Positions 3,509 through 59,665 are shown, numbered from the stretch's first letter. The stretch: DNA of 64,000 nucleotides from Verrucomicrobiota bacterium (GCA_050010435.1 JBEKKZ010000005.1:45544-109543); one strand, 5' to 3'. The notes: generated by a model not told the origin, from the letters alone. A program made the numbers and translations.

Positions 3509-5257
3509 ATGAAATTCCGCTGGTCGCTCGCGCCGCCGCAACCGCTCCTTGCCGGTCAACTGGCGGCGCAGCTCAAAATCCCGCCCTTGCTCGCGCAATG
3601 CCTGCTCAATCGCGGTTTCAGCGAACCGTCCGCCATTGAAAATTTTCTCTCGCCGCGCCTCAAGAACCTTGCCGACCCTTTTTTGCTCCCGAACATGGCC
3701 GTCGCCGTCGAGCGATTGCTCCGCGCCCGCGAACAAAATGAATCACTGATCATCTTTGGCGATTATGACGTGGACGGCGTGACCTCCACCGCGCTCCTCG
3801 TCGAAGTTCTGCGTCCGCTTGGCTGGAAGGTGGATTTTTATCTGCCGAACCGCATGGACGAAGGCTACGGCCTCAGCGCCGACGGCGTCGAAAATTGCCT
3901 CAAAAAGTTTCCCGTAAAACTGCTGCTCGCCGTGGACTGCGGCTCGACAGCCGTGGAAACCATCAGCCTTCTGCGTTCGCGCGGCGTGGAGGTCATCGTC
4001 CTCGATCATCACCAGGTTTCTTCGCCCCCACCGGCCGCCGTGGCGTTGGTGAACCCGCAACTCCAAAGTAGCGCAGGCGTCCCGCCTGCACCGGACAGGC
4101 GTGACGCCTGTGCTACTTTCACCGAACTTTGCTCTGTTGGTCTGGCCTTCAAACTGGCTCATGCGCTGGTCAAACGCGGACGCGAAATTGGCTTGCCGGG
4201 CGCGGCGGAATTTGATTTGCGACCACTCCTCGATTTGGTCGCGCTCGGCACGATTGCCGACCTGGTGCCATTGACCGGTGAAAATCGGATTCTCACTTCC
4301 GCCGGTTTGCAACGCCTTAATATGACGCAGCGGCCCGGTTTGCTCGCGCTCAAGCAGGTCGCGCAGTGCCCGCCAATGCTCGGCGCTTACGAAGTGGGTT
4401 TTCAACTGGCCCCGCGCCTGAATGCCGCCGGCCGGCTCGAAACCGCGGAGGAATCGCTGCATTTGCTGCTCGCGCGCGATTTGGCCGGGGCCATGCCCAT
4501 CGCCCAAAGCCTCGACTCGCGAAACCGCGAACGCCAGAAGATTGAACGCGGCATCGTGGAGGAAGTCATCGGGGTCGTTAAATCAAAATTTGATCCGCAG
4601 ACTGATTTCGTCATCGTCGAAGGGCGATTGCTCTGGCACATCGGCGTGGTCGGCATCGTCGCGTCGCGCGTGCTGCAACAATTTTACCGCCCCACGATCA
4701 TTCTCGGCGGTGAAGGCGGTGAATGGCGCGGTTCGGGCCGCAGCATTGCGGGATTTGATCTGGCCGCCGCGTTGCGTGAGTGCGGCGATTTGCTCGTGCG
4801 GCACGGCGGTCACGCGATGGCGGCGGGACTGAGCCTTCAGCCGGACAAAGTGGACGCGCTCCGGCAGCGGTTGAATGAACTGGCGCGCCGCGCGTTGAAG
4901 CCGGAGGATTTGCAACCACCGGTGCGCCTCGATGCGGAAGTGGGTTTGGACGAAATGACTTTGGAATCGCTTGGCGAACTGGCGCGCTTGAAACCGGCCG
5001 GGCAGGGGAACCCGCCGGTGCAATTTTGCGCGCGCAGCGTCACGCACCAACGCCCGCTCCAGCGCATGGGCAAGGAGAAACAGCACGTCAAACTTTGGGT
5101 GACGGACGGCGCCGTGACGCACGAAGCCGTTTGGTGGAATGGCGGCGACGAGTCGTTGCCGGTCGGAAAATTTGATCTGGCGTTCGCGCCGCAGGTGAAT
5201 GAATTCAACGGCCGCCGCACGGTGCAATTAAAAGTGCTCGATTGGCGGGCGGCGTGA
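3509..5257 (+). CDS. recJ: Single-stranded-DNA-specific exonuclease RecJ
   Basis: 582 aa; DHH-family motifs IFGDYDVDGVTS, LLAVDCGS, VIVLDHHQ and DHHA1 motif GGHAMAAG. Carries a 17-codon family-A palindrome (SSAGVPPAPDRRDACAT). Confidence 0.9.
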   Translation: MKFRWSLAPPQPLLAGQLAAQLKIPPLLAQCLLNRGFSEPSAIENFLSPRLKNLADPFLLPNMAVAVERLLRAREQNESLIIFGDYDVDGVTSTALLVEVLRPLGWKVDFYLPNRMDEGYGLSADGVENCLKKFPVKLLLAVDCGSTAVETISLLRSRGVEVIVLDHHQVSSPPPAAVALVNPQLQSSAGVPPAPDRRDACATFTELCSVGLAFKLAHALVKRGREIGLPGAAEFDLRPLLDLVALGTIADLVPLTGENRILTSAGLQRLNMTQRPGLLALKQVAQCPPMLGAYEVGFQLAPRLNAAGRLETAEESLHLLLARDLAGAMPIAQSLDSRNRERQKIERGIVEEVIGVVKSKFDPQTDFVIVEGRLLWHIGVVGIVASRVLQQFYRPTIILGGEGGEWRGSGRSIAGFDLAAALRECGDLLVRHGGHAMAAGLSLQPDKVDALRQRLNELARRALKPEDLQPPVRLDAEVGLDEMTLESLGELARLKPAGQGNPPVQFCARSVTHQRPLQRMGKEKQHVKLWVTDGAVTHEAVWWNGGDESLPVGKFDLAFAPQVNEFNGRRTVQLKVLDWRAA

Positions 5258-5274
5258 AGTTTTTTAGAAATTAC

Positions 5275-5302
5275 TTGCAATTATTTCGGGAATGGCTAAA
5301 TT
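5275..5302 (+). promoter_or_regulatory. Possible sigma70-type promoter for the RRM protein gene
   Basis: TTGCAA (5275-5280), 16-nt spacer, TAAATT (5297-5302), about 135 nt upstream of ATG 5437. Pattern match only. Confidence 0.3.
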
Positions 5303-5436
5303 TGGCCCGTCTGTTGGACAACTTGTCCTTTCGAGGCATGGAAAATCTTCAAGTGAACGTGGTTCAGTGATGATTTGAGACCCGATGGTCGGGAACAGTC
5401 TGGAAAAACGGTTGGTCTTGAACAGCAAATCATTAA

Positions 5437-8360: not shown

Positions 8361-9494
8361 ATGACGGTTCTTGCCCTTGAAACTTCCTGCGACGAAACCA
8401 GCGCCGCCGTCGTGCGCGACGGCAGGGTTTTGTCCAGCGCCGTCTCCTCACAAATCAAGTTGCACGCCGAATACGGCGGCGTCGTGCCGGAACTTGCCGC
8501 CCGCGAACATCTGCGGAATTTGATTCCCGTCGTGCAAACCGCGTTACGCGAGGCGGGGGTGCAGCCGGGACAACTCGACGCTGTTGCTGCCACGCAAGGA
8601 CCGGGTTTGCCGATGGCCTTGCTCGTCGGATTCAAGGCCGCGCAGGCCGTCGCGTTCACCTTGCGGAAACCATTCATGGGCATCAACCATCACGAGGCGC
8701 ATTTGTATTCACCGTGGATTTCTCAACAACCAGTGCCACTCCCTGTAGCCGCGGACGTCAGTCCGCGCACTTTAAGTTCAATGAAAGTCAGCGCCGACTC
8801 ACGTCGGCGGCTACGGTTCAGGGACTCAATGCGCGGAATTTTCTTTGCCGACTTCACCGCCTTTCAACCGAACGTTTCGCTCATCGTAAGCGGCGGGCAC
8901 ACCATGCTCGTGCGGGTGGAATCCGAATTGAAACATCGCGTGCTCGGTTCGACGGTGGACGACGCGGCGGGCGAATGTTTCGACAAAACCGGCAAACTCA
9001 TGGGGCTGCCATATCCCGCCGGACCCGAAATTGACCGGCTGGCGGAGCAGGGGAATCCAAAGGCGTTTGACTTTCCGCGACCTTTGCTTAATGACCCCGG
9101 TGATGACTTCAGCTTCAGTGGACTGAAAACCTCCGTGCGCTATTTTCTGCGTGATAATCCAGCCTTGCTGGACGACGCACAGCGCTTGCGCGATTTGTGT
9201 GCCAGCATCCAGGCGGCCATCGTCGAAGTGCTCGTGAAGAAAACCATCCGCGCCGCGAAACGAAACCACGTCCGTTGTGTAACTGCGTCCGGAGGGGTCA
9301 CCTGCAATCGCGCCTTGCGCCGCGAACTGGCGCGCGCGTGCGAGCGCGAAGGTTTTGCGCTGCAGCTTGCGGAAAAAAGTCTTTGCACGGACAACGCGGC
9401 AATGATTGGGATTCTGGCTGAAAGAAAATTGGCGCAAAATATTCCCGCCTCCGACCTCGACGAGGAAATCAAACCCGGCTGGGTTCTCGCTTGA
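8361..9494 (+). CDS. tsaD: tRNA N6-adenosine threonylcarbamoyltransferase TsaD
   Basis: 377 aa; Kae1/TsaD motifs [45 protein letters not shown]. Contains a family-C palindrome in frame ([23 protein letters not shown]). Confidence 0.9.
8745..8814. repeat. REP-like palindrome, family C, translated inside tsaD
   Basis: GTAGCCGCGGACGTCAGTCCGCGC ... GCGCCGACTCACGTCGGCGGCTAC. It starts on a tsaD codon boundary, and the same family occurs in glnS (35247..35308). Confidence 0.85.
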
Positions 9495-9512: not shown

Positions 9513-12185
9513 ATGGCCGACCGTTTGCCCATTTACGAAATCGAGCGCGACATCATCGCCCGGCTGAAAACCAACCGGCGGCTGATTTTGTCCGCGCCGA
9601 CCGGTTCCGGCAAATCCACGCAGGTGCCGCAAATGCTGCTCCGGCACGGTCTGCTCGGCGACGGGCAGGTAGTGATTCTCCAGCCGCGCAGGCTGGCCAC
9701 GCGGTTGCTAGCGTCCCGCGTGGCGCAGGAACTCGGCGTCCAGCTTGGCAACGAAGTGGGTTATCAAATCCGTTTTGAAAATATCACGTCTCCGCAGACG
9801 AAAATCCGTTTTGTGACGGAAGGCGTCTTGTTGCGGCAGATGATTGACGATCCGAATTTGCACGGCGTTGCCGTCCTCATCTTTGACGAGTTTCACGAAC
9901 GCCATCTTTACGGTGACATCACGCTGGCGCGCGCACTCGACTTGCAGGAGCAGCACCGGCCGGACCTGAATCTCATCGTCATGTCTGCGACGCTCGACGC
10001 GGAGTTATTGGGGGATTACCTCAACCAGGTAGGGCGGGCTGTCCCCAGCCCGCCGCGGCGCGCAGGGGACTGCGCGCCCTACCAATGCTCTGTCTTGTCC
10101 TCCGAAGGCCGCGTATTTCCGGTTGAAATCGAATACGCCGCGCAGCCGGGTTACACGGACAAACGCCCGGTTTGGGAGCAGGCTGCCGAGGCCTTCAGTC
10201 ACTATGTTGGCTCCGGCGGGGAGGGTGACGTGCTGGTGTTCATGCCGGGCGGCTTTGAGATTTCGCAGACCATCGAGGCCATCCGTCATACTTCGGAGTC
10301 GAAAGGTTTTATTTTGCTTCCGTTGTACGGCGAACTTTCCCCCAAAGACCAGGATGCCGCGGTGGCGCGTTACGGCCAGCGCAAAGTTGTCGTTTCCACC
10401 AACGTCGCCGAGACCTCGCTGACCATTGACGGCATCCGGCTGGTGATTGACAGCGGGCTGGCGCGCATTCCGCGTTACGATCCGTATCGGGGCATCAACA
10501 CGCTGCTCATCGAGAAGATCAGTCAATCGTCAGCGGACCAAAGGGCGGGGCGGGCGGGCCGCACCGCGCCGGGCGTTTGCATGCGGCTTTGGTCGCGGGA
10601 GGAACATGGACATCGGCTGGTTCAGGAACTGCCCGAAATCAAACGGCTTGATCTGGCTGAAGTCGTGTTGACGCTCAAAGCCGCCGGGGTCGAGGATTTG
10701 CGGAAATTCCGCTGGCTCGAACCACCGAATGAACAAAGCCTGGTCCATGCAGAGGAATTACTGGAAGACTTGGGCGCAATAAAAAGTAGCGCGGCCGTCC
10801 CGGCTGCCGCAGTTAATGACAATTCCAGTATTCAGCGGAATGCTGAACCCGGCAGGCGGGACGCCTGCGCTACTTCTCAAATCACCCCCATCGGCCGCAA
10901 GATGCTCGCGTTTCCGTTGCACCCGCGTTACTCGTGCATGTTGCTCGCGGCGCAGGAATACGGTTGCGTCCACCAGGCCTGCCTTGTCGCCGCGCTCACG
11001 CAGGGGCGCGATTTGCTGCTGCGCAATGTGGATCGTGACACGCAGGCGCTGCGGGAGGATTTGCTGGGGGAGAAGGCGTCGTCGGATTTCTGGATTCTGA
11101 TGCGCGCGTGGACTTACGCGGCCAAAAACCAATTCCGCCTCGACGCCTGCCGCCGGCTCGGCATCCACGCCGTCACCGCACGGCAGGTCGGGCCATTGTT
11201 TGAACAGTTCCTTCGCATCGCCAAAGACGAAGGTCTCGATGTGAAACCGCGCGAGGTGAAGGACGAGGCCTTGCAGAAGTGTATTCTCATCGGATTTTCC
11301 GACCGCGTGGCGCGGCGGCTGGACCAGGGCACGCTGCGTTGCGAATTGGTCCATAATCGTCGCGGTGTGCTGGCGCGCGAAAGCGCCGTGCAACACAGCC
11401 AGCTTTTCGTGGCTGCCGAAGTCCGCGAAGTCGAGGGCCGGGAAGTGAACACCATTCTTTCCCTTGCCACCGCCATTGAAGCGGACTGGTTGCGCGAACT
11501 TTACCCCGAAGACATGGAATCCGACCTGCACGTCCAGTTCGATTCCACGGCCAAACGGGTGCAAGCCGCGGAGCTGTTGAAGTTTCGCGGCCTGGCGCTG
11601 TCAGCCAAGCGCGTTGAACCGCCGCCGGCCGACATGGCGGCACGATTGCTGGCCGATGAAATTATTGCCGGACGATTGCTGTTGCCGAATTGGGATCACA
11701 GTGTCGAGCAATGGCTGTTGCGGCTGCGCCTGCTTTGCCAGCATTGCCCCGAGCTCCAGCTTCCGCCCATCACCGAAGACGATCGCAAGCACATCATCGG
11801 GCAGCTTTGCCACGGTGCGGTGAGTTACAAGGACATCAAGGAACGCGAAGTGAAACCGGTTGTGGTGTCGTGGCTGTCCGAGGCGCAACGCGGGTTGCTG
11901 GACAAGCACGCGCCGGAGCGGTTGTCGCTGCCGAACGGCCGCACGCCGAAGGTTGCCTACGAGGCGACCGGCTCGCCGCATATTTCGTTGCGCATCCAGG
12001 AACTTTACGACGTGATCCAGACGCCGAAGATTGCGCTGGGGCGCGTGCCGGTGCTGGTTCACATTCTGACTCCGGGCATGAAGCCGATACAAATTACACA
12101 GGACCTTGCCAGTTTCTGGCGCGAGCACTATCCGCGTATCAAATCCGAGTTGCAGCGGAAATATCCGAAACATCTGTGGCGATGA
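9513..12185 (+). CDS. hrpB: ATP-dependent RNA helicase HrpB (DEAH box)
   Basis: 890 aa; motifs I APTGSGKST, II DEFHER, III SAT, VI QRAGRAGR. Length and C-terminal region fit HrpB rather than HrpA (inference). Carries two in-frame palindromes. Confidence 0.9.
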   Translation: MADRLPIYEIERDIIARLKTNRRLILSAPTGSGKSTQVPQMLLRHGLLGDGQVVILQPRRLATRLLASRVAQELGVQLGNEVGYQIRFENITSPQTKIRFVTEGVLLRQMIDDPNLHGVAVLIFDEFHERHLYGDITLARALDLQEQHRPDLNLIVMSATLDAELLGDYLNQVGRAVPSPPRRAGDCAPYQCSVLSSEGRVFPVEIEYAAQPGYTDKRPVWEQAAEAFSHYVGSGGEGDVLVFMPGGFEISQTIEAIRHTSESKGFILLPLYGELSPKDQDAAVARYGQRKVVVSTNVAETSLTIDGIRLVIDSGLARIPRYDPYRGINTLLIEKISQSSADQRAGRAGRTAPGVCMRLWSREEHGHRLVQELPEIKRLDLAEVVLTLKAAGVEDLRKFRWLEPPNEQSLVHAEELLEDLGAIKSSAAVPAAAVNDNSSIQRNAEPGRRDACATSQITPIGRKMLAFPLHPRYSCMLLAAQEYGCVHQACLVAALTQGRDLLLRNVDRDTQALREDLLGEKASSDFWILMRAWTYAAKNQFRLDACRRLGIHAVTARQVGPLFEQFLRIAKDEGLDVKPREVKDEALQKCILIGFSDRVARRLDQGTLRCELVHNRRGVLARESAVQHSQLFVAAEVREVEGREVNTILSLATAIEADWLRELYPEDMESDLHVQFDSTAKRVQAAELLKFRGLALSAKRVEPPPADMAARLLADEIIAGRLLLPNWDHSVEQWLLRLRLLCQHCPELQLPPITEDDRKHIIGQLCHGAVSYKDIKEREVKPVVVSWLSEAQRGLLDKHAPERLSLPNGRTPKVAYEATGSPHISLRIQELYDVIQTPKIALGRVPVLVHILTPGMKPIQITQDLASFWREHYPRIKSELQRKYPKHLWR
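10029..10082. repeat. REP-like palindrome, family B (GTAGGGCGGGC...GCGCCCTAC), translated inside hrpB
   Basis: 54 bp = 18 codons (VGRAVPSPPRRAGDCAPY), codon-aligned with hrpB. Related copies lie at 16864..16919 and 57474..57546. Confidence 0.85.
10785..10874. repeat. REP-like palindrome, family A, translated inside hrpB
   Basis: AGTAGCGCGGCCGTCCCGGCTGCC ... GGCAGGCGGGACGCCTGCGCTACT; 90 bp = 30 codons ([30 protein letters not shown]), codon-aligned. Confidence 0.9.
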
Positions 12186-20061: not shown

Positions 20062-20937
20062 ATGAGTCGAGAGTCGAGAGTCGAGAGTCGAGAGCAAAGG
20101 TCGCCGAGCGCCGAGGGAAAAGCCCTCGACCCTCGACCCTCGACCCTCGTCCGCTATAGCGCCATTTACACTGCGTTGTGGAAGACGTCCGTGACGCGCG
20201 AAATGTCGTTCAAGGGCAACTTTCTCCTTTGGATTGTCGTCGAGCTGGCCTGGTTCGGACTGCAACTCGCCTTCGTCGGGGTGATTTTCAGCCAGACCAC
20301 CACCGTCGGCACGTGGACGGTGTGGCAGGTGGTGCTGCTCACCGGCACGAGCAATTTCATCCAGGAAATTTACCAGGCGTTCTTTCTCGTGAACTGCACG
20401 AACCTCTCCGAACTCGTCCGCACGGGCAAGATGGATTTCCTGCTGCTGCTGCCGGTCAACACACGGTTCATCGTTTCGACGCGGCAGGTGGACCTGCCGT
20501 CGTTTGCCAACGCGGCGTTCGCCGTCTGCGTGATGGGTTTCGCGGCGGGAAAATTGAATTTGCACCCGACGGTCGTTCAGTTCCTCGGCTTTGGCGCGTT
20601 GTGCGCCGTCGGGCTTTTGGTGCATTATTCGCTCATGTTCATGCTCGCCTCGGTGAGCTTTTGGACGGTGCGCGCGCAAGGCATCGTGTGGGGCTACTAC
20701 AGTCTGTTCAACATCGCGCGGATGCCGGACGAGGCGTTTCGCGGCGCGTTCAAGGCCGTGTTCACCTTCGCGCTGCCCGTGCTGCTCGTGTCCAACGTGC
20801 CCGTGCGCGTGCTGGCGGACAAATTGACTTCGCCCACCATGTGGTTGGTGCTGATCGGTTTGGGTGTCGTCTGGGCGCTCATTTCCGAATGGTTCTGGCA
20901 GTTCTCCATCCGCCGTTACACCAGCGCGAGCTCGTGA
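20062..20937 (+). CDS. ABC-2 family transporter permease (second subunit)
   Basis: ATG 20062 lies 2 nt after the previous stop. Polytopic body YSAIYTALWKTSVTREMSFKGNFLLWIVVELAWFGLQLAF (COG3694-like). Codons 2-30 are encoded by a heptamer-periodic hairpin. Confidence 0.7.
   Translation: MSRESRVESREQRSPSAEGKALDPRPSTLVRYSAIYTALWKTSVTREMSFKGNFLLWIVVELAWFGLQLAFVGVIFSQTTTVGTWTVWQVVLLTGTSNFIQEIYQAFFLVNCTNLSELVRTGKMDFLLLLPVNTRFIVSTRQVDLPSFANAAFAVCVMGFAAGKLNLHPTVVQFLGFGALCAVGLLVHYSLMFMLASVSFWTVRAQGIVWGYYSLFNIARMPDEAFRGAFKAVFTFALPVLLVSNVPVRVLADKLTSPTMWLVLIGLGVVWALISEWFWQFSIRRYTSASS
20064..20149. repeat. Hairpin built from tandem heptamers, inside the first 30 codons of the permease gene
   Basis: (GAGTCGA)x4 at 20064-20091, 31-nt loop, (CCCTCGA)x3+CCCTCG at 20123-20149. 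The arms pair with one A.C mismatch every 7 bp. Confidence 0.85.
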
Positions 20938-20943: not shown

Positions 20944-20975
20944 AGTTGAGGGTTGAGAGTTGAAGGTTGAGAGTA
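20944..20975 (+). repeat. Tandem heptamer array (GTTGAGR)x4
   Basis: gttgagg gttgaga gttgaag gttgaga immediately after the permease stop; no inverted partner seen. Confidence 0.75.
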
Positions 20976-26939: not shown

Positions 26940-26942
26940 TTT

Positions 26943-26966
26943 GTAGCGGCGCTCTGTGAGCGCCGG
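26943..26966 (+). repeat. REP singlet, family D, copy D1
   Basis: GTAGCGGCGCTCTGTGAGCGCCGG (GTAG followed by a 7-bp stem). Confidence 0.8.
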
Positions 26967-26978
26967 ATGCTGGCAAGT

Positions 26979-27129: not shown

Positions 27130-27302
27130 GATGCAAACGCGGGAGAAGAGTTAACGCAAAGTCGCGAATGGGGAGCACAGCTGCCCCGGCTGCGCCCGCC
27201 TGCGTGGCCGTAGCCACTTCGTCGCGGCGAAGGCCCGGGGCGGGCGCGCTCCCAAATCAAAAACGGGTCACAACCTTGCGGACTTGCGCATCCGCGCACC
27301 TT

Positions 27303-27374: not shown

Positions 27375-27385
27375 CGCTGTTGCCA

Positions 27386-28810: not shown

Positions 28811-28814
28811 TGTT

Positions 28815-34906: not shown

Positions 34907-36832
34907 TTATACCTTCCGTGCCTCTTTCGCCCAGGTGTCCTTCAATGTAATCGTTCGATTGAAAATGAGGCGTGAGGCGTTGGGCACGAGGCTTGAGTCT
35001 TTGTCCAAAGCAAAATAGGCGAGGCGCTCGAATTGGTAGCGCAGCTCCGGCTTCGCGTCTTTCAGGCTTGGCTCGCATTTTGCCGTCACCACTTCCAGGC
35101 TGTGCGGGTTGAGCGTGGATTTGAAGTCGCCAGCCGCATCCGGCTCCGCAGTGGTGAACAGGCGGTCGTATAATCGGACTTCAGCGTCAATCGCGTGCGC
35201 GGCGCTTACCCAATGGATTGTGCCTTTGACTTTCCTATTCGGGCCCGTAGCCGCAGACGTTAGTCCGCGCACTTCCATTTCTTTGCGCCGACTCACGCCG
35301 GCGGCTACAAATTTGGAATCGAGGTCGGCGGTGCAACGCAGTTCCACAATCTTGCCGGCGGCGTCCTTCACCACTTCGTCGCATTTGATGATGTAGGCGT
35401 ATTTCAACCGGACTTCGCCGCCGGGTTTTAACCGGAAATATTTCGGCGGTGGCACTTCCTTGAAATCGTCCTGCTCAATGAACAGTTCGCGGCTGAACGG
35501 AATTTTCCGTTTGCCCACGTTTTCGTCCTCGGGATTGTTGACGGCGTCCAGTTCCTCGGTTTTGCCTTCGGGATAGTTGGTGAGGACGACCTTGATGGGG
35601 CGCAACACGGCGAGCCGGCGCAGGGCACGCTTGTTCAGGTCTTCGCGGATGGCGTGTTCGAGCACGGCCACGTCGGTCAGGCCGTTGTATTTGGTGATGC
35701 CGATGTTGTAGGCGAACGCGCACAGCGCGGTCGCCGGAACGCCGCGTCGCCGGATGCCGCTGATGGTGGGCATGCGCGGGTCGTCCCAGCCGGTGACGAG
35801 TTTTTCGCTCACAAGCTGCATCAACTTGCGTTTGCTCATCACGGTGTAGGCGAGGCTGAGCCGGGCGAATTCGTATTGATGGGGCAAGGGACGCGGCAGG
35901 TCGAGGTTCTCCAGTATCCAATCGTAAAGCGGGCGATGCACCTCGAATTCCAGCGTGCAAATGCTGTGCGTGATGCCTTCGATATAATCGCTCAGGCAAT
36001 GCGCGAAATCATACATGGGATAAACACACCATTTGACGCCGGTGTGATGATGGTCGGCGTGGCGGATGCGGTAAATGAGGGGGTCGCGCATCCAGACGTT
36101 CGGCGCGGTGACGTCAATCTTTGCGCGGAGCGTGCGCGCGCCGTCGGGGAACTCGCCGTTCTTCATCCGGGTGAACAAGTCGAGGTTTTCCTCGACGCTG
36201 CGGTTGCGGAACGGGCTTTCCTTGGCGTTGCGGCGATATTCGTCGGTTTCGTCCGGTGTCAGGTCGCAGACATAAGCCTTGCTCTTCTTGATGAGCGCGA
36301 CGGCGTATTCGTAAAGCTGGTCGAAATAATCCGAAGCATAAAATGGCTCCAAGGTAGCGCAGCCGTCCCGGCTGCCTTCCTCGGATGCTTGCAGGCGGGA
36401 CGCCTGCGCTACATTTGCAGGCGGGACGCCTGCGCTACCAGAAACTGGTGCCAAATAAAAATCAGGTTTGCCATTGCTCGTAATCGTCTCCGGGGTTTTG
36501 CCTTTGGGTTTCAGGCCGAGCTTGTCATCGGCCCAGCCGGCGATCAGCCAGTTCACGTCCTCGATGATGGAGTCCACGTATTCGACGTCTTCCTTGGTCG
36601 GGTTGGTGTCGTCCATGCGCAGGTTGCAGACGCCGCCGAACTCGTGGGCGATGCCGAAGTTGAGGCAGATGCTTTTGGCGTGGCCGATGTGCAAATAGCC
36701 GTTCGGTTCGGGCGGAAAGCGGGTGTGAATGCGCGGATACTTTTTCTCGGCAACGTGTTTCTCGACGATGTCGCGGATAAAATCAGACGGACCGGCAGGC
36801 GATGGCGGATTACCTGTGTTCGGATTGCTCAT
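34907..36832 (-). CDS. glnS: Glutaminyl-tRNA synthetase
   Basis: 641 aa; HIGH region [19 protein letters not shown]-type TVMSKRKL, C-terminal [13 protein letters not shown]...RLYDRLF as in GlnRS. Two palindromes are translated in frame. Confidence 0.95.
35247..35308. repeat. REP-like palindrome, family C, translated inside glnS
   Basis: GTAGCCGCAGACGTTAGTCCGCGC ... GCGCCGACTCACGCCGGCGGCTAC; encodes (minus strand) [21 protein letters not shown]. Confidence 0.85.
36353..36439. repeat. REP-like palindrome, family A, 1.5 copies, translated inside glnS
   Basis: GGTAGCGCAGCCGTCCCGGCTGCC ... GCAGGCGGGACGCCTGCGCTAC attt GCAGGCGGGACGCCTGCGCTACC; 87 bp = 29 codons ([29 protein letters not shown]). 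Confidence 0.9.
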
Positions 36833-38514: not shown

Positions 38515-39129
38515 ATGACGACCGCCAACAAAATCACGATTCTGCGCATCCTGCTGATTCCGTTTTTTGTCGTCGAATTGATTTATTACCTCCAAACCGG
38601 CAACGAAATTCACCGGCTGCTGGCAATCCTTTCGTTTGCGGTCACGGCGATCCTGGATGGCGTGGACGGTTACATCGCGCGGCGTTACAGCCAAAAAAGC
38701 GAGCTGGGCGCGATTCTTGATCCGCTCGCGGACAAAATGCTGCTCTTGTCGGCCATCGTCACGTTGAGCTTCAATCACGCGTCGTACATCGGACAAATCC
38801 CACTCTGGCTCACGGGCACCATCCTCGGACGCGATTTGCTGGTGCTCATCGGCATCGCCGTCGTTCGATTCATCGTCGGCAAGGTGATCGTGCGCCCGCG
38901 CCTCATGGGCAAAATCGCGACGGTGCTGCAAATGATCGTGGTCTTTTGGATTTTACTGGACTGGGACCGCGATTTGAATGCGCGCTGGCTCAAGGTCTGG
39001 ACGTTTGGCGCGGCAATATGCACGGGCGTGTCGGGGCTGCTTTACATCTGGGATGGCGTGAAACAGCTCGGCTCGCATCCGGCAAGTTCGCCGACGGTGA
39101 AGAGCGGGAGAACTGGAGTGATGGAGTAA
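38515..39129 (+). CDS. pgsA: CDP-diacylglycerol--glycerol-3-phosphate 3-phosphatidyltransferase
   Basis: CDP-alcohol phosphatidyltransferase motif DGVDGYIARRYSQKSELGAILDPLADK; polytopic. The last 5 codons and the stop lie inside the octamer hairpin. Confidence 0.8.
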   Translation: MTTANKITILRILLIPFFVVELIYYLQTGNEIHRLLAILSFAVTAILDGVDGYIARRYSQKSELGAILDPLADKMLLLSAIVTLSFNHASYIGQIPLWLTGTILGRDLLVLIGIAVVRFIVGKVIVRPRLMGKIATVLQMIVVFWILLDWDRDLNARWLKVWTFGAAICTGVSGLLYIWDGVKQLGSHPASSPTVKSGRTGVME

Positions 39130-39197
39130 TGGAGTGATGAAAGAAAAAGTATTGCTTCGAGTCCCAACGTTCCATTACTCCAATACTCCAACACTCC
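39115..39197. repeat. Hairpin built from tandem octamers, overlapping the pgsA stop
   Basis: ggagtgat ggagtaat ggagtgat (39115-39138), 35-nt loop, attactcc aatactcc aacactcc (39174-39197). Confidence 0.85.
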
Positions 39198-39209
39198 ACT
39201 CTCTGATTT

Positions 39210-43509: not shown

Positions 43510-43547
43510 TTTTCAACCAGGCTGTGTCCGTTTGGCTGCACGTTTGT

Positions 43548-43606
43548 GTAGCGGCGGTCTATGACCGTCGCCATTGATTTAACCGTCGCTCACAGAGCGC
43601 CGCTAC
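43548..43606. repeat. REP-like doublet, family D, copy D4 (inverted relative to D2/D3)
   Basis: GTAGCGGCGGTCTATGACCGTCG ccattgatttaa CCGTCGCTCACAGAGCGCCGCTAC, between the convergent peroxiredoxin and M50 genes. Confidence 0.85.
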
Positions 43607-44520
43607 AAAATCGGCGGAGCATTTGAAGCCGCCATCCATTCGCTCATCGGCCGCACGTTGCCGCATTCCGGGCAGGACGCCACCACAAATTGAGCTCCGC
43701 AGTTTGGACAAACGCCCTGCGTTTCAAACGTGTCAAAGGCTTTCCGGCATTTCCCGCATACCCAGAATGCGCCGCGGGGCGGGGCGACTTTGCAGACCGG
43801 ACAGGCAAATCCGTCGTGACGCGGCGCATTGGCGACGCGGGCCATCGCGCGGGCCTGCATCAAGCCACCCCAGCAATTCAGCAAAATAAAAGCGGCCATG
43901 ATGCCGAGCCAGAAGGATTGTTGCCAAAAGGCAAACAGGATCAGGCCGGCCACACCTACAAAGCCGATGCTGCTGGCGATGAGCAGGCTGCGCGCCCGGC
44001 CAAATACAAACCAAAGCAACGACCGCAAAATCTGTCCGCCGTCAAGCGGATAGACTGGCATCAGATTGAAAATCAGCAAAATGGTGTTGATATACCAAAT
44101 CGTCATCACATAAACGTAAAGGTTCGGAAAGGTTTCCATCCAACCGGCTGAATATCCCAGCCACCAGATGATTGAAAACACGGGGAAAAGCGCCACATTT
44201 ACCAGTGGTCCGGCGGCGATGCTCCAAAGCATGGCGCCCGGACGTTGCGGCGGGGAGACATACGCCACGCCACCGAGCGGCCAGAGCACGATTTGATTCG
44301 CCCGCCCGCCCACCTGCCGACACGCGAGCGAATGGCCGAACTCGTGCATGAGCACGATCAAAAATAGCGTGAGATATTCCAGTGCATTCCAGTGGATGGA
44401 AGAATAATGGTTCGCCCGGGTCTGAATTTCGTACCACGCGACGAAAAACCAGGACCAATGCAAAAAAACTTCAATTCCGAAGAGCTGGAACAACCGGATG
44501 GAGCCTCGATGGGTTGGCAT
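43603..44520 (-). CDS. Site-2 (M50) metalloprotease with C-terminal zinc ribbons
   Basis: HEFGH zinc site, NLMPVYPLDGG motif, C-terminal CPVC...CGKC...CPNC...CPEC. Start trimmed to ATG 44520. Confidence 0.85.
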   Translation of the reverse strand: MPTHRGSIRLFQLFGIEVFLHWSWFFVAWYEIQTRANHYSSIHWNALEYLTLFLIVLMHEFGHSLACRQVGGRANQIVLWPLGGVAYVSPPQRPGAMLWSIAAGPLVNVALFPVFSIIWWLGYSAGWMETFPNLYVYVMTIWYINTILLIFNLMPVYPLDGGQILRSLLWFVFGRARSLLIASSIGFVGVAGLILFAFWQQSFWLGIMAAFILLNCWGGLMQARAMARVANAPRHDGFACPVCKVAPPRGAFWVCGKCRKAFDTFETQGVCPNCGAQFVVASCPECGNVRPMSEWMAASNAPPIL

Positions 44521-44617: not shown

Positions 44618-44624
44618 ATCATTT

Positions 44625-44698
44625 TCGATTTACGATATGCGATTTACGCGTCGCGCATGAATTGTGGAAGGATTCGTAAATCGTAAATCGCATATCGA
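44625..44698. repeat. Hairpin built from tandem heptamers (CGATTTA-type)
   Basis: tcgatttacgatatgcgatttacg (44625-44648), about 25-nt loop, cgtaaatcgtaaatcgcatatcga (44675-44698). The arms pair with a few mismatches. Confidence 0.8.
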
Positions 44699-48015: not shown

Positions 48016-50955
48016 ATGCACAACTTATTCAACACACTCCGGAAATTTGACCTCGGCGGCGGCAGGCAGGGATCGTTCTATTCCCTGCCCGCGCTGGAAG
48101 AGGCCGGCGTCGGGCCGGTTTCCCAATTGCCCGTCTCCATCCGCCTCGTGCTCGAGTCCGTGCTCCGCAATTGCGACGGCAAAAAGGTCAGCGAACAAAA
48201 CGTGCGCGCGCTGGCGAATTGGAAGCCAACTGAAACCCGCACGGAGGAAATTCCGTTTATCGTCGCGCGCATCGTGCTGCAGGATTTCACCGGCGTGCCG
48301 CTGCTGGTGGATTTGGCGGCGATGCGCTCCGCCGTTCAACGGCTGGGCAAAAATCCGAAAATCATCGAGCCACTCGTGCCGGTGGATCTGGTCGTGGACC
48401 ATTCGGTGCAGGTGGATTTTGCGGGCAGCGTGGATGCGTTTCAGAAGAATCTGGACATGGAATTCCGGCGCAATCGCGAGCGTTATCAATTTCTCAAATG
48501 GGGCATGCAGGCCTTCGACACGTTCAAGGTCGTGCCGCCCGGCATCGGCATCGTCCATCAGGTCAACTTGGAATATCTCGCCAAGGGCGTGCTCAGTAGC
48601 GCAGGCGTCTCGCCTGCACAGAGCAATGGGAATGCAGCCGGGACGGCTGCGCTACTTTATTATCCGGACACGCTGGTTGGCACGGATTCGCACACGACAA
48701 TGATCAATAGCCTCGGCATCGTGGGTTGGGGTGTCGGCGGTATCGAGGCTGAAGCCGGCATGCTGGGCCAGCCGGTTTATTTCCTCACGCCGGACGTCGT
48801 CGGCGTGCATCTCACCGGCGCGTTGCGCGAGGGCGTCACCGCCACCGACCTCGCGCTCACCATCACGGAAATGCTCCGCAAGGCAAAGGTCGTCGGCAAG
48901 TTCGTCGAATTTTTCGGTCCCGGCGCGGCGGCGTTGCCGGTTGTGGACCGCGCGACGATGGCGAACATGGCGCCCGAATACGGCGCGACGATGGGTTTCT
49001 TCCCGATTGATGCCGAGTGCGTAAATTATCTCCGCGCCACGGGCCGCAGCGAAGAGCTTTGCCTGACCTACGAAAATTATTACCGCGCGCAGGGTTTGTT
49101 CGGCATTCCCAGGAAGGGCGACATCGCCTACTCGCAGGAACTGGAACTCAACCTTGGCATGGTGGTTCCCAGCGTGGCCGGCCCGAAGCGCCCGCAGGAT
49201 CGCATCGAACTGCCGAAGTTGAGAGACGCGTTCATGAAGGCGATGACGCGTTCGGTCATGGACAATGGCTTCGGCAAGCGCTTCGAGGAGCTGTATGTAA
49301 CCGCGCGGGTCAACACGGCGCGGGAGGCCCATCCGCCCATTAATCACAGCTATGGCCATCGCAAGCTGGGCGTGGATCCCAGCGAATCCGAGATGCGCGA
49401 CCAGCACCCCGCGCCCCACACCTCGGAGCATGTGCCTTCCACGACGTTTCGCGGGGTGCAGTCCGAAATTCGCCACGGCAGCGTGCTCATCGCGGCCATC
49501 ACCAGTTGTACGAACACGTCGAATCCCAGCGTCATGCTCGCCGCCGGTTTGCTGGCGAAGAAGGCCGTGGAATGCGGACTCAGCGTGAATCCCGTCGTCA
49601 AAACCTCGCTCGCCCCCGGCTCGCGTGTGGTGAGCGATTACCTGGACCGGACCGGCCTGCAATTCTACCTCGATCAGCTCGGCTTCAACCTCGTGGGTTA
49701 CGGCTGCACGACTTGCATCGGCAACTCCGGTCCCCTGCCGGCCACGGTCGAAGACGCGATCAACAAATACGACCTGGTCGTGGCCTCCGTCCTTTCGGGC
49801 AACCGCAACTTCGAGGCGCGCGTGCATCAGAGCATCAAGGCGAACTTCCTCATGTCGCCACCGCTCGTTGTCGCCTTTGCGCTCGCGGGCCGCGTGGACA
49901 TTGACCTGAGCCGCGAGCCGATCGGCACGGGCAAGAATGGCCGGCCGGTTTATCTTCGCGACCTCTGGCCAAGCCTGCGTGAAATCCGCGACCTCATGCA
50001 AACCGCGTTGCAGCCGGAAGTTTATCGCAGGCTGTTCAAGGATTTTGCGGCGCAGAATCCCAAGTGGAACGAAATCCCCTCGTTCACCGGCAATGTTTTC
50101 GTATGGGACCGCCGGTCCACTTACATACAGGAACCGCCGTTCTTCGAGAAGTTCCTGCTGCAAGCCGGGGAAATTCGTGAAATCAAGGGTGCGCGAGCGC
50201 TGGCCATTTTTGGCGACAGCGTGACGACCGACCACATTTCACCCGCTGGATCCATCAAGAAGACATCGCCGGCTGGAAAATATCTCATCGAAAACGGTGT
50301 CGAACCGGCGGACTTCAACAGCTACGGCTCGCGGCGGGGCAACGACCGGGTGATGACGCGCGGCACGTTCGCCAATGTCCGCATCAAAAACCTCATGGTG
50401 CCTGGAGTTGAAGGTGGGGTGACCAGATTTTTTGGTAGCCGCGTTCGTGAGAATGCGGATGCCACAGGTGAAAAGCCCGGCGCTTTCACAAGCGCCGCTA
50501 CGGGGGAGGTGATGCCGATTTACGACGCCGCCATGAAATATCGGACTGCCGGCGTTCCGCTGGTGGTGATTGCCGGACAGGAGTACGGCACCGGTTCATC
50601 CCGTGACTGGGCTGCGAAAGGCACGAACCTGCTCGGCGTGAAGGCCGTCGTGGCGCAGAGCTTCGAGCGCATCCACCGCAGCAACCTTGTCGGCCTGGGC
50701 GTGCTGCCGCTGCAATTCAAGGAAGGCACGACGGCACAGACGCTCAACCTCGATGGCACGGAGACCTACGACATCGTCGGCCTTGGCGCGAATTTGAAAC
50801 CGCAGCAGGATTTGACGCTGAAAATCACGCGCCAGGACGGCGGCGTGGAAGATGTGCCCGTGCGTTGCCGGATTGATACGCCGATTGAAATTGATTACTA
50901 CCAGCATGGCGGCATTTTGCCCTACGTGCTGCGGCAGTTGGTGGCGAAGGCGTGA
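48016..50955 (+). CDS. acnA: Aconitate hydratase A
   Basis: 979 aa; [33 protein letters not shown] Fe-S ligand regions, C-terminal swivel domain ([19 protein letters not shown]). Two palindromes are translated in frame. Confidence 0.95.
48595..48656. repeat. REP-like palindrome, family A, translated inside acnA
   Basis: AGTAGCGCAGGCGTCTCGCCTGCA ... TGCAGCCGGGACGGCTGCGCTACT; codon-aligned, reads [21 protein letters not shown]. Confidence 0.9.
50435..50501. repeat. REP-like palindrome, family D-like, translated inside acnA
   Basis: GTAGCCGCGTTCGTGAGAATGCGG ... CCGGCGCTTTCACAAGCGCCGCTAC; reads [23 protein letters not shown] between the conserved GVTRF and [13 protein letters not shown]. Confidence 0.8.
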
Positions 50956-50961: not shown

Positions 50962-51028
50962 GGAACGCCGGCCTCCGGCACGGCGCGATGTTATAGCCGA
51001 AACAAGCCGTGCCAAAGGCCGGCGTTCC
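50962..51028. repeat. Palindromic element, family F, copy F3
   Basis: GGAACGCCGGCCTCCGGCACGGC gcgatgttatagccgaaacaa GCCGTGCCAAAGGCCGGCGTTCC. Confidence 0.85.
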
Positions 51029-51032: not shown

Positions 51033-51791
51033 ATGAAACCGCGAACCAAGCGCGAATATCTGTGCCAACTTGTTGAGGGGAAGAATAAAGCGTTCCGTCC
51101 GCTTACAGATGAAGAGAAGGCGCTGGGCTTCCATGGCTGGCATGAGCGCGGTTATCTGCCGCATTGCGATTATCCTGGTCTCGTTCAATTCGTCACGTTT
51201 CGCCTTGCCGATTCCATGCCAGCCTCACGTCGCGGTGAGTGGGAACATTTGCTCAAGATTGAAGACGATCGGGAGAAGCGCACGAGACTGGAGGAATATC
51301 TTGATCGCGGAGTTGGTGAATGTCATTTGCGCGATCCGCGAATCGCCAAAATTGCCGAAGACGCCATGCTTCATTTTCATAACGAACGCTACGAACTGCT
51401 CGCCTGGTGCGTGATGCTAAATCACGTCCATGTTCTTGTTCATGTCTGGCAGACGCCGCTATGGAAGACGGTGCGAAGTTGGAAACACTTCGTCCAAACA
51501 CAGGCGAATCGATTGCTTGCGGAACACCGGCTTCCAGCACGGCGCGGTGGTGAAAGGAACAGCAACGAGCCGGGCCGGAGGCCGGCGCTCCAATGGCAGC
51601 GGGAATACGGGGATACATTCATGCGGGATGGAGATCAGGAAAGGAAAGCCGTTCGTTACATCGAAAACAATCCGGTGACGGCAAGACTGTGTCGCGTGGA
51701 CAAGGAGTGGCCTTTCAGCAGCGCAAGGTTTCGGGATGAATTTCATCGGCTGTTGATTCCCGCCGGAGCGCCGATCTCCGAATCGGCGTGA
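51033..51791 (+). CDS. REP-associated tyrosine transposase (RAYT; IS200/IS605 Y1 HUH family)
   Basis: YLPHCDYPGLVQFVTFRLADSMP, HUH motif NHVHVLVH, QWQREYGDTFMRD, catalytic Tyr in AVRYIENNPVTARL, WPFSS. ATG 51033 preferred over GTG 51009. Confidence 0.85.
   Translation: MKPRTKREYLCQLVEGKNKAFRPLTDEEKALGFHGWHERGYLPHCDYPGLVQFVTFRLADSMPASRRGEWEHLLKIEDDREKRTRLEEYLDRGVGECHLRDPRIAKIAEDAMLHFHNERYELLAWCVMLNHVHVLVHVWQTPLWKTVRSWKHFVQTQANRLLAEHRLPARRGGERNSNEPGRRPALQWQREYGDTFMRDGDQERKAVRYIENNPVTARLCRVDKEWPFSSARFRDEFHRLLIPAGAPISESA
51521..51591. repeat. Palindromic element, family F, copy F4, translated inside the RAYT gene
   Basis: GGAACACCGGCTTCCAGCACGGCG ... GCCGGGCCGGAGGCCGGCGCTCC; encodes about 24 aa (EHRLPARRGGERNSNEPGRRPAL) between ANRLL and QWQREY. 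Confidence 0.8.
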
Positions 51792-51835
51792 GAATCCGGC
51801 GCCAGCCAACGCGCCGAATCGGAGTGCGGCGCTCC
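51765..51835. repeat. Palindromic element, family F, copy F5
   Basis: GGAGCGCCGATCTCCGAATCGGCG tgagaatccggcgccagccaac GCGCCGAATCGGAGTGCGGCGCTCC. The RAYT stop codon TGA (51789-51791) is in the loop. Confidence 0.85.
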
Positions 51836-57399: not shown

Positions 57400-57473
57400 A
57401 ATTTACGGCAGTTGCCCGGTAGCCGTTGCGCTTCGCGGCATGATACCAATTCCCAGTGGGAATCGGCACATGG

Positions 57474-57546
57474 GTAGGGCGCGCCACTCCGTCCGCGCCG
57501 CAATCGTTGTGCGGACGAGCGGCGGGCAGAGGGCTGCCCGCCCTAC
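57474..57546. repeat. REP-like doublet, family B, copy B3
   Basis: GTAGGGCGCGCCACTCCGTCCGCGCC ... GGCGGGCAGAGGGCTGCCCGCCCTAC. Confidence 0.8.
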
Positions 57547-57579
57547 CGAGGTTTGTTCCGGTTGTCATTGAGAAATGGC

Positions 57580-57753: not shown

Positions 57754-57765
57754 CACAGCGACATT

Positions 57766-57828
57766 CCGGCAGGGCGCTGCATTATTTGGTTTGCGGCTCT
57801 CTGCCGAGGAGCCGCTACGCCGCAAAAT
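57766..57828 (-). repeat. Family G doublet, copy G5 (degenerate)
   Basis: agcgacattCCGGCAGGGCGCTGCATTAT ... TGCGGCTCTCTGCCGAGGAGCCGCTAC aligns with G3. Confidence 0.7.
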
Positions 57829-57874
57829 AAAATTCTTCGTTCCTTCGTTCCTTTGTGGTTAATCTTTCCGCCAC

Positions 57875-59665
57875 ATGAAGTGGTCCCAAGCATTTATTCC
57901 GACCCTGCGCGAAGCTCCGGCTGACGCGGAAATCCTTTCCCATAAACTCCTGCTGCGCGCCGGGCTTATCCGCAAGCTCGCGGGCGGGGTTTACACCTTT
58001 CTGCCGCTCGGTTTGCGCGCGCTGCGCAAGGTGGAGCAAATCGTCCGCGAGGAAATGGACCGTGCGGGCGCGCTCGAACTGCTCATGCCCGCCCTTCAGC
58101 CGTCGGAAATCTGGCAGCAAAGCGGCCGGTACGAAACCGCGGGCAACGTGTTGTATAAATTGAAGGACAGCGGAAACCGCGAATGGGTTCTCAGCCCGAC
58201 GGCCGAGGAGGTCATTACCACCACCGCCGCCAGCGAGATTAATTCCTACCGGCAGTTGCCAAAGAATTTTTACCAGATCAGCGTCAAGTTCCGGGACGAA
58301 ATCCGTCCGCGCTTCGGCCTGATGCGCGCCCGTGAGTTCATCATGAAGGACGCCTACAGTTTTGACGTGAGCGACGAGGCGGCGCAGGTGTGCTATCAGA
58401 AAATGTACGACGCCTATGCGCGCATCTTCGCCCGGTGCGGACTGAAGGCGTTTCCGGTCGAGGCCGACACCGGCGTCATCGGCGGGAAATTTTCGCATGA
58501 ATTCATGGTTCCGGCGGAAACCGGCGAGAATGAGGTGGTTTACTGTGAGGCCTGCGGTTACGCGGCGAACATCGAGAAGGCCACCAGCGGCATTCCCAAA
58601 ACCGCCGCGCGTGAAGTCGGCGCGGCGATTGAAAAGTTTGCCACGCCCGGCGTTGTCACCATCGAAGCGCTGAGCAAGGCGCCTTACGGCGTTCCGGCCA
58701 ATCGTCAGATCAAAACGCTCGTTTACATCGCAGATAGCAAACCAGTCATCATTTTGATCCGCGGCGACGACCAGTTGAACGAAGCCAAGCTCGCGGGTAT
58801 CATCGGCACCGCGGTGTTCCGTCCAGCCACACCGGAAGAATGCGTGGCCACGCTCGGCGCGCATCCGGGAAGTCTCGGTGCGATTGCGAGCGCGCTGAAA
58901 AGTAGCGCAGGCGTCCCGCCTGCAAACTCCGAGGGCAGGCCAGAGGCCCGCGCTACTTTGCAAATATTCGCCGACGAGCGTTTGCGCGGCGCGAATGACA
59001 TGACCACCGGTGCGAATGAGGACGGTTTCCATTTCCGCAATGTCTCCATCGAACGCGACATCAAGGGGACGCAATGGTTCGATTTAAGAACTGTGACTGC
59101 CGGTGAACCCTGCGCGAAATGCAGCAAACCGCTGAAAATCCGCCGCGCCATCGAGGTCGGCCACGTTTTCAAGCTCGGCACGAAATACAGCGAGAAGCTG
59201 GGCGCAACATTTCTGGACGAGGCCGGCACGCGCAAGCCCGCCGTCATGGGTTGCTATGGCATTGGCGTTACACGAACCCTGCAAGCGGTCATCGAGCAGT
59301 GCAACGACAAGGACGGCATCATCTGGCCGTTAAGTATCGCGCCGTATCAGGTTTGCATCACACCGTTGGGCGTGGCGCCGGACAGCGCGGTGATGAAACT
59401 GGCGGAGAAAATTTACGCGGAACTGACCGCACGCGGCGTGGAAGTGATTCTGGATGACCGCGATGAACGTCCCGGCGTAAAATTCAAGGACGCGGACCTG
59501 GTGGGCTTTCCGATTCGCGTGGGCATCGGCGAGAAATCGCTGGCGAAGGGCGAAGTAGAACTCAAGCCGCGCGGTGGCGCGCTGCAACCCGTCAAGGCCG
59601 ACGAAGCGGTGGATGCCGTGATAAAATTGGTGGAAGCAAGCAATGGCGGTCTGCGAACGGCATGA
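57875..59665 (+). CDS. proS: Prolyl-tRNA synthetase (bacterial type with INS editing domain)
   Basis: 596 aa; class II motif 2 FRDEIRPRFGLMRAREFIMKDAYSF, motif 3 GCYGIGVTR, C-terminal anticodon-binding domain. One palindrome is translated in frame. Confidence 0.95.
   Translation: MKWSQAFIPTLREAPADAEILSHKLLLRAGLIRKLAGGVYTFLPLGLRALRKVEQIVREEMDRAGALELLMPALQPSEIWQQSGRYETAGNVLYKLKDSGNREWVLSPTAEEVITTTAASEINSYRQLPKNFYQISVKFRDEIRPRFGLMRAREFIMKDAYSFDVSDEAAQVCYQKMYDAYARIFARCGLKAFPVEADTGVIGGKFSHEFMVPAETGENEVVYCEACGYAANIEKATSGIPKTAAREVGAAIEKFATPGVVTIEALSKAPYGVPANRQIKTLVYIADSKPVIILIRGDDQLNEAKLAGIIGTAVFRPATPEECVATLGAHPGSLGAIASALKSSAGVPPANSEGRPEARATLQIFADERLRGANDMTTGANEDGFHFRNVSIERDIKGTQWFDLRTVTAGEPCAKCSKPLKIRRAIEVGHVFKLGTKYSEKLGATFLDEAGTRKPAVMGCYGIGVTRTLQAVIEQCNDKDGIIWPLSIAPYQVCITPLGVAPDSAVMKLAEKIYAELTARGVEVILDDRDERPGVKFKDADLVGFPIRVGIGEKSLAKGEVELKPRGGALQPVKADEAVDAVIKLVEASNGGLRTA
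58901..58957. repeat. REP-like palindrome, family A, translated inside proS
   Basis: AGTAGCGCAGGCGTCCCGCCTGCA ... GGCCCGCGCTACT; 57 bp = 19 codons ([19 protein letters not shown]), codon-aligned. Confidence 0.9.

Follow-up and report, generated by a model that had tools for sequence, protein, structure and literature searches.

Here, we describe palindromic elements that lie in frame within housekeeping genes of a Verrucomicrobiota bacterium. The stretch of DNA analysed, referred to as the window, comprises 64,000 nt (JBEKKZ010000005.1:45544-109543), and a prediction made from its sequence alone (the original prediction) had named eleven palindromes that would be translated as parts of genes. 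Ten of these eleven units are canonical hairpins of the repetitive extragenic palindromic (REP) type with a GTAG or GGAG head, arranged as inverted doublets (REP doublets forming hairpins, REPINs). Very probably, the units were spread by a REP-associated tyrosine transposase (RAYT), and copies that keep the reading frame are retained in permissive loops of the host proteins, where they are translated and turn over. This reading builds on the anatomy of the units, their repetition, their in-frame position, their absence from orthologues, their turnover between relatives and their association with a RAYT gene, all of which were observed.

Results

Ten of the palindromes are REP units inside intact genes

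All eleven palindromes were located, each within an unbroken open reading frame (ORF), as had been predicted. A scan for strict palindromes (18-nt arms with at least 16 matches, total length 40-130 nt) returned 12 in the window, eight of them inside genes, and 0, 0 and 0 in three Markov shuffles. Hairpins with a GTAG or GGAG head and a perfect stem of at least 7 bp numbered 26 in the window, compared to 0-2 in ten shuffles. The RNAs of the eleven units fold with −35 to −57 kcal/mol, at z-scores of −2.6 to −7.9. Altogether, 14 of about 24 REP monomers and seven of 11 strict REP doublets in the window are located in genes; the predominantly extragenic location that is a trait of REPs is not observed here, and PMC3733652 admits intragenic members to the class.

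The original prediction had taken the eleven units to be alike. This holds for ten of them, which are of the REP type, but not for the unit in an ABC-2 permease gene, a different element at a gene boundary that is described below. The REP monomer comprises 20-26 nt and consists of the GTAG or GGAG head, 1-5 nt, a G+C-rich stem of 7-9 bp and a loop of 3-6 nt. GTAG-type REPs are defined as units of 20-40 nt in which a terminal GTAG or a degenerate head (GYAG, GTRG, GGAG) precedes a G+C-rich stem of 6-9 bp with a short loop. In one case, glnS 36353-36439, a triplet is found instead of a doublet. The predicted unit lengths in multiples of three apply to the boundaries drawn in that prediction but not to the spans from GTAG to CTAC, which measure 49, 70, 54, 88, 62, 85, 60, 67, 71 and 55 nt in the ten REP units.

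Near-identical DNA units of 22-26 nt recur across unrelated genes and intergenic DNA, and BLAST of the half-sites within the window gave at least five families, A to E. Family A (GTAGCGCAGGCGTCCCGCCTGC) occurs in recJ, at the second site of hrpB, at the first sites of glnS and acnA, and in proS. Family B (GTAGCCGCGGACGTCAGTCCGCG) occurs in tsaD and at the second site of glnS. Family C (beginning GTAGGGCGGGC) is present at the first site of hrpB and as an intergenic doublet at 57468-57552. Family D (GTAGCGGCGCTCTGTGAGCGCCG) is intergenic only, with a doublet at 33394-33451 and further copies at 28813-28870, 43541-43613 and 26941-26974, the last one being a single arm. The GGAG-headed family E (beginning GGAGCGCCGGCCTCCGGC) occurs within the RAYT gene, in its surroundings and at 27.3-28.0 kb, where intergenic doublets are found at 27296-27383 and 27936-28016.

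The names given to the host genes proved right: NCBIfam equivalogs identify RecJ, TsaD, HrpB, GlnRS, AcnA and ProRS, all encoded by full-length ORFs that score above the curated cut-offs, and Pfam identifies the ABC-2 permease. Several of the profile matches are broken in two precisely at the inserts. The REP inserts would lengthen the proteins by 17-30 residues, with Ala, Gly, Pro, Ser and Arg abundant among them. In recJ (3509-5257, plus strand; TIGR00644 recJ, 473 bits), a family A doublet (4067-4117; RNA fold −42.9 kcal/mol) corresponds to residues 187-203 and encodes SSAGVPPAPDRRDACAT. The tsaD gene (8361-9494, plus strand; TIGR03723, 384 bits, with the match split in two at the insert) carries a family B doublet (8745-8814, residues 129-152). 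Two doublets are found in hrpB (9513-12185, plus strand; TIGR01970, 614 bits), one of family C (10029-10082, residues 173-190) and one of family A (10785-10874, residues 425-454). The glnS gene (34907-36832, minus strand; TIGR00440, 661 bits) harbours the family A triplet with two direct copies and one inverted copy (residues 132-160) and a family B doublet (35247-35308, residues 509-529). In acnA (48016-50955, plus strand; NF009520, 1346 bits), a family A doublet (48595-48656, residues 194-214) is followed by a degenerate doublet (50435-50501, residues 807-829) that folds into two separate hairpins. Finally, proS (57875-59665, plus strand; NF006625, 747 bits) has a family A doublet (58901-58957) at residues 343-361, in the editing domain.

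The low complexity of the encoded peptides would suit ordinary lineage-specific protein loops, but such loops do not explain why near-identical DNA units are shared by unrelated genes and intergenic DNA, nor why more than 120 independent metagenome contigs share these units. Pseudogenes or assembly artefacts would not be expected to give full-length ORFs above equivalog cut-offs, and independent assemblies of relatives look alike. The probability of either explanation is negligible.

Inserts are absent from orthologues and turn over between relatives

An alignment gap versus solved orthologues or paralogues was found at every REP-type unit of the six housekeeping proteins. The RecJ insert faces an 11-aa gap in the solved RecJ 8y30, residues 125-158 of TsaD stay unaligned to the solved TsaD chain 6nak, the first HrpB insert falls into a gap in E. 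coli HrpB (6eud), and the GlnRS inserts do so in the enzymes of E. coli and P. aeruginosa. The first AcnA insert corresponds to a 16-aa gap in human IRP1 (2b3x) and the ProRS insert to a gap of about 13 aa in P. aeruginosa ProRS (8w8j), the comparison for these two sites being with distant solved orthologues only. The original prediction had stated that the extra residues coincide with the palindromes. They do map onto them in the solved orthologues, close relatives lack them or have different ones, and the HrpB and GlnRS junctions quoted at the time are correct in the alignments.

Close relatives without an insert, or with a replacement of it, were found for seven of the REP inserts. A scan of GTDB genomes with HrpB led to 80 loci, mostly from metagenome-assembled genomes (MAGs) of Verrucomicrobiota subdivision 3 / Limisphaerales, by which the organism is placed. 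The alignment with orthologues and relatives that had been proposed as a check was thereby carried out, and it revealed inserts that are absent or variable: of the 76 HrpB orthologues in the alignment, about 50 have short, gap-free sequence at both insert sites (YLxP-CxxL and DLGALDxxG-xIT), and REP doublets of other families occupy these sites in about 20 close relatives. The recJ insert is absent or replaced in three relatives (L001, L002, L036) and the tsaD insert is absent in three (L036, L012, L025). For GlnRS, 120 relatives of at least 79% identity were compared. Only the three closest of them (P0001-P0003) share the second insert, which amounts to net +54 nt versus the relative L081, and the site of the first insert is filled by at least six classes of palindromic elements as well as by short heptamer-derived fillers. 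The second site of acnA is empty in L205, has the same element in L204 and a longer element in L203.

In the neighbour-joining tree of HrpB, presence and absence of inserts are intermingled within the clade, and the nearest relatives of the window are all occupied, by different REP families. Because of this interspersion and the different families in the nearest relatives, the occupied loops are hot spots with turnover and not the remains of one ancient insertion. On a time scale that corresponds to 75-90% protein identity, other REP families refill the same loops.

Reading frame and translation

All ten genic REP units preserve the downstream frame and are free of stops in the frame used. Without any constraint on the frame, the chance that ten out of ten keep it is (1/3)^10, about 2e-5. 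No frame-broken gene at a REP was noticed in the ORF map of the window, for which no systematic search was made.

One might argue that the units are not translated, but cut from the mRNA or bypassed by the ribosome, giving proteins free of inserts, and the hairpins are indeed very stable. Under these circumstances frame and stops would be unconstrained, yet all ten units are in frame and open, which argues for translation. In addition, Rfam at gathering thresholds yielded no family, and no known self-processing RNA, in the whole window, and RPE-decorated proteins (carrying Rickettsia palindromic elements, RPEs) of Rickettsia are expressed according to the passage on them in PMC3733652. We regard untranslated units as very improbable.

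The same low probability is assigned to the idea that the palindromes are intragenic invertons, in which recombination between the arms would turn the spacer around, so that two protein isoforms result. Intragenic inversions between inverted repeats are documented in bacteria (bioRxiv 10.1101/2023.03.11.532203), and inversion in place keeps nine of the ten host ORFs stop-free. A stop-free inversion is, however, expected for near-perfect palindromes, so this test does not discriminate. Moreover, spacers can be as little as 0-14 nt long, an invertase was not seen adjoining the units, and these units are REPs of the ordinary kind, dispersed and accompanied by a RAYT.

The five family A copies of the window all read SSAGVPPA, but this is a local feature. 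In metagenomes, family A is found in all stop-free frames and in both orientations (SSAGVPPA, VAQASRL, RRDACAT, AGGTPAL, QAGRLRY), and a single obligatory frame is ruled out by the use of every stop-free frame elsewhere. We also considered that the intergenic families are barred from genes by stops. Family D has 0-4 open frames of six and family E 4-5, as in the genic families; with few open frames in family D alone, support for such a barrier is weak at best.

The RAYT gene and the doublet inside its ORF

A RAYT gene with NHVHVLV as its HUH motif and RYIENNPV as its Tyr motif lies at 51033-51791 on the plus strand. Its ORF reaches 58.7 bits against NCBIfam REP_Tyr_transpos, at a cut-off of 80, and 19 bits against 23 for Pfam Y1_Tnp (E=0.0016); the sub-threshold score is plausibly owed to an 18-aa insert and an N-terminal extension. 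Some relatives of this RAYT are named RayT by the JGI, and a phmmer search against PDB sequences gave no match. Family E doublets are found upstream of the gene (50962-51028), within the ORF between the HUH and Tyr motifs (51521-51591) and overlapping the 3' end (51765-51835).

Removal of the insert in silico restored the canonical HUH-Tyr spacing. In the wider RAYT family, the distance from HUH to WQxEY is 38-39 aa in 36 of 55 representatives; in the clade of the window, 118 of 119 measurable relatives (69-90% identity) have a distance of 52-67 aa. The internal doublet is likewise kept in 118 of 119, and in the exception (L208) it has collapsed to a perfect palindrome of 23 nt. Other RAYT lineages bear other insertions in the same HUH-Tyr loop.

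Seven orthologous RAYT loci were fetched (L203-L209). The gene order acnA-RAYT is kept in five of them, and an rsmB-like gene comes next in the relatives. Doublets upstream and downstream of the RAYT gene are present in the window and in all seven loci, and an intact internal doublet is seen in the window as well as in six of the seven. Judging from these loci, the RAYT would be a single-locus, vertically inherited gene flanked by REPs.

A cognate RAYT flanked by its own REPs was found for family E in the window and for family A in one related locus only, L188; none was seen for families B, C and D. There, at 2700-3600, a RAYT that is 36% identical to that of the window and lacks the internal insert has family A doublets on both sides. 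It is likely the cognate transposase type of family A, the family that decorates recJ, hrpB, glnS, acnA and proS, and family A would then have such a transposase type in the group, outside the window.

Conservation of the REP arms

The arms of genic REPs changed little between relatives. In the glnS triplet, the three arms of the window and of L081 are identical in 65 of 66 nt and the spacers in 16 of 21, at 86% identity of the whole gene and 71% at third codon positions. In the RAYT-internal doublet, the arms of L203, L207 and L209 are identical in 45-46 of 48 nt (94-96%), at 50-53% identity of the third codon positions of the gene. Furthermore, the stems of the internal doublet co-vary between RAYT lineages at the same two stem positions (GT/AC, AA/TT, AT/AT, CT/AG, AG/CT, GC/GC), and the encoded residues shift non-conservatively (LPARR, SPTRR, APSRQ, TPIRR).

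This would lead to the assumption that the intragenic hairpins are kept for a function of the nucleic-acid structure, such as ribosome pausing at domain boundaries, protection from RNases, binding of gyrase or nucleoid proteins, or self-limitation of the RAYT. Such a function would be compatible with an origin as REPINs. It is favoured by arms far more conserved than synonymous sites, by stems that co-vary while the encoded residues change, and by the retention of the internal RAYT doublet in nearly all measurable relatives. On the other hand, the host proteins and the positions of the inserts are unrelated to each other, most HrpB and GlnRS relatives have no insert at the same site, and decay is seen in the relative L082 and at the second site of acnA; co-variation is also expected if newer palindromic members of a family simply take the place of old copies or convert them. 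Altogether, we consider a hairpin function unlikely, though far less so than invertons or untranslated units.

It is tempting to speculate that selection keeps the hairpins in genes and that the RAYT-internal doublet turns the gene of the transposase, or the transcript, into a substrate or binding site of its own product, a feedback by which REPINs might be restrained. This is a doubtful proposition as it stands, but autoregulation by the internal doublet is an attractive idea and may apply.

Decay and local change are visible in L082, the closest relative with 95% GlnRS identity. Both tandem family A monomers of its glnS show the same A-to-C substitution, by which a stem pair is broken, and one monomer has lost the GTAG head. 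These changes suggest that adjacent copies converted each other locally and that decay has set in.

Density and distribution beyond the window

The window, the host of which is described as a soil or peat Verrucomicrobium, contains about ten REP inserts in 64 kb, or about one per 6 kb. The genome of the Verrucomicrobium Opitutus terrae has a size of about 6 Mb; over this length, the about 70 intragenic entries listed for that species (see Discussion) correspond to roughly one per 85 kb. The loci of the window's closest relatives have a similar genic density, with 1-3 per 16-22 kb. The window may be unrepresentative, though the loci of the nearest relatives agree on the density.

Strict palindromes of any kind were counted without a head filter in the 80 related loci together with the window: 36 lie in coding-like ORFs and 80 elsewhere, and 73% of this DNA was classified as coding. 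Intergenic DNA is still favoured about 6-fold per base. The exact 22-mer of family A was found in more than 120 metagenome contigs, and 34 of the 79 sites away from contig ends are in coding-like ORFs, as opposed to 66% of random positions. A preference of family A for genes, to which its five copies in the window, all genic, would point, was rejected on these grounds. From the metagenome sites and frames, family A therefore has neither a preference for genes nor an obligatory frame.

Heptamer arrays and other features of the window

The unit in the ABC-2 permease gene (20064-20149) is not a REP but consists of inverted heptamer arrays at the 5' end of the gene, (GAGTCGA)x4.4 facing (CCCTCGA)x3.9. 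It begins 2 nt past the likely start codon ATG at 20062, with GGAGG 8 nt upstream, and the previous gene ends at 20059. The unit is either N-terminal or intercistronic. Because of its position at the start codon and of like arrays at other gene boundaries, it is handled here as a boundary element of uncertain translation. Further inverted arrays are located at gene boundaries of the window (20945-20971, 39114-39198, 44621-44690). With repeats of 7-8 nt (GAGTCGA/CCCTCGA, GTTGAGG, TGGAGTGA/TCCAATAC, ATTTACG/TCGTAAA), these arrays form a second class of palindromes. Heptamer-derived peptides (STLNPQPS) occupy the hot-spot loops of GlnRS, RecJ and HrpB in relatives.

A gene with a TfoX_N domain is located at 27386-27770 (minus strand; Pfam E=6.9e-25). 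Next to REPs, four repeats of its 5' end together with the leader are found (at 27074, 27732, 28612 and 33467), over 46-93 nt and with 87-91% identity over 46 nt, and the regions 26.9-28.9 kb and 33.3-33.9 kb are a patchwork of duplicated modules. The slot just downstream of glnS is filled differently from relative to relative, with cargo that is unrelated. The window has an ORF of 308 aa there (33974-34900, minus strand) with an atypically low GC content at third codon positions (GC3, 0.39) and a hydrophobic N-terminus; L081 (4997-5920) has a reverse transcriptase of 307 aa (RVT_1). The ORF of the window was considered as a defence gene and rejected, as it has no match in Pfam or PADLOC and is not homologous to the reverse transcriptase of L081. 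A direct repeat of 189 nt, 85% identical between its copies at 59667-59855 and 62938-63126, starts right past the stop codon of proS and flanks an ORF of 899 aa (59911-62610, minus strand); no Rfam family was found there.

Discussion

Apparently, the genic units are REPINs whose history could be as follows. REPINs are non-autonomous and would be moved by RAYT-type HUH/Tyr transposases via single-stranded DNA, with copies landing in coding DNA as well as between genes. A selective filter would then leave those copies that preserve the frame, are free of stops and lie in loops tolerating extra residues, and the ribosome would read through the inserts in RecJ, TsaD, HrpB, GlnRS, AcnA, ProRS and the RAYT. 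Over time, the occupied loops would turn over, leaving close relatives with other REP families at the same protein position. Mobilisation by the RAYT, translation of the inserts and their near-neutrality are what we infer.

Several points weigh against this scenario. RAYTs for families A-D were not found in the window. Translation of the inserts is deduced from the constraint on frame and stop codons alone. The AlphaFold2 model of GlnRS, computed with 48 close relatives, had a mean pLDDT of 41 and was unusable; because of this failure, the placement of the inserts in surface loops is taken from the alignment gaps only. Hairpins of this stability in essential mRNAs should cost something. Arms far better conserved than synonymous sites are not expected of a purely neutral passenger unless gene conversion or re-insertion takes place, and the scenario by itself does not account for them. 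Such conservation is compatible with selection on the hairpin, with conversion against REPs elsewhere in the genome and with new copies entering an already occupied site time and again.

If the inserts are indeed filtered by selection, such genomes would be a natural insertional scanning experiment, in which hundreds of loops of 17-30 residues may sit in essential enzymes such as GlnRS, ProRS, TsaD and aconitase. The occupied sites flag insertion-tolerant positions, which is useful for protein engineering, and their turnover illustrates how protein loops can be made and renewed by mobile DNA. The genic density challenges the "extragenic" in REP, and it raises the question how ribosome and RNA polymerase get past hairpins as stable as −40 to −57 kcal/mol in essential mRNAs. 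The doublet conserved inside the RAYT gene provides a testable lead on how REPIN-RAYT systems are restrained. If true, the feedback loop would allow for a genic REPIN population that is unusually dense but stable.

How do the units compare to known systems? The original prediction had likened them to RPEs. As far as behaviour is concerned this is justified: the descriptions of RPEs in PMC10969869 and PMC3733652 also have palindromes in frame in unrelated housekeeping genes, presumably tolerated in loops. It does not extend to membership, since the units are GTAG/GGAG REP doublets with a cognate RAYT. Going by the class descriptions in PMC3733652, they are set apart from the RPE families: RPE-1 is about 150 bp long, RPE-4 and RPE-6 are CGTC-headed and come without a transposase, whereas the doublets described here measure 50-90 bp, have GTAG or GGAG heads and are accompanied by a RAYT. 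Also, the host of RPEs is obligately intracellular, in contrast to the free-living bacterium with a large genome considered here. Enterobacterial repetitive intergenic consensus (ERIC) sequences and MITEs (miniature transposable elements with inverted repeats) within genes (Delihas 2007, in PMC10969869; Coxiella QMITEs, PMC5896051) are, according to these sources, small and non-autonomous and occasionally fused to ORFs in frame, as are the units here. Unlike the latter, they are described there as elements of the terminal-inverted-repeat type derived from insertion sequences that are rare in genes and not associated with RAYTs.

The likeness to REPIN-RAYT systems (Bertels and Rainey 2011, PMC3116915; Bertels et al. 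2017, PMC5581495) is closer. There, as here, inverted doublets act as the unit, the RAYT is found at a single locus, is syntenic and so vertically inherited, and is flanked by doublets, and REPs are conserved over the long term. However, these papers treat REPINs as extragenic, whereas those of the window are genic, and in the literature searched on REPIN-RAYT systems no dense genic REPIN population is described. Nor was a description of a REP inside a RAYT ORF found in the literature searched on REPs, REPINs and RAYTs.

The closest precedent is the survey by Di Nocera, De Gregorio and Rocco (2013; BMC Genomics 14:522, PMC3733652), in which prokaryotic REPs were split into the GTAG and CGTC super-families. 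In-frame intragenic GTAG REPs were reported, with the highest count in O. terrae; more than half of these REPs are dimers coding for 20-30 aa, and the hosts are helicases, repair genes and other enzymes. About 70 entries for O. terrae are contained in Additional file 3, among them metabolic enzymes, with peptides like GTGVPPV...HGRDARAT, and two Xanthomonas species were noted to carry different REPs in recB at roughly one and the same position. The original prediction knew of no description for this kind of organism; that the phenomenon is undescribed there is refuted by the O. terrae entries. Both cases have in common the phylum, a GTAG-type head with a stem of 6-9 bp, and inverted dimers coding for 20-30 aa, and the O. 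terrae peptides are close to the SSAGVPPA...RRDACAT found here. The hosts are similar, too, comprising helicases, repair enzymes, metabolic enzymes and, in other species, tRNA synthetases, and RAYTs flanked by repeats are found in that survey as well. The differences are as follows: the bacteria studied here belong to Verrucomicrobiota subdivision 3 (Limisphaerales-like MAGs), O. terrae to the Opitutae; REP families turn over systematically at the same loops across dozens of close relatives; and a REP doublet lies inside the RAYT ORF, whereas in the 2013 survey overlaps are at its 5' or 3' end only. What goes beyond the 2013 description is how dense the inserts are, how REP families replace each other at the same loops, how well the arms are conserved, and the REP doublet inside the RAYT ORF.

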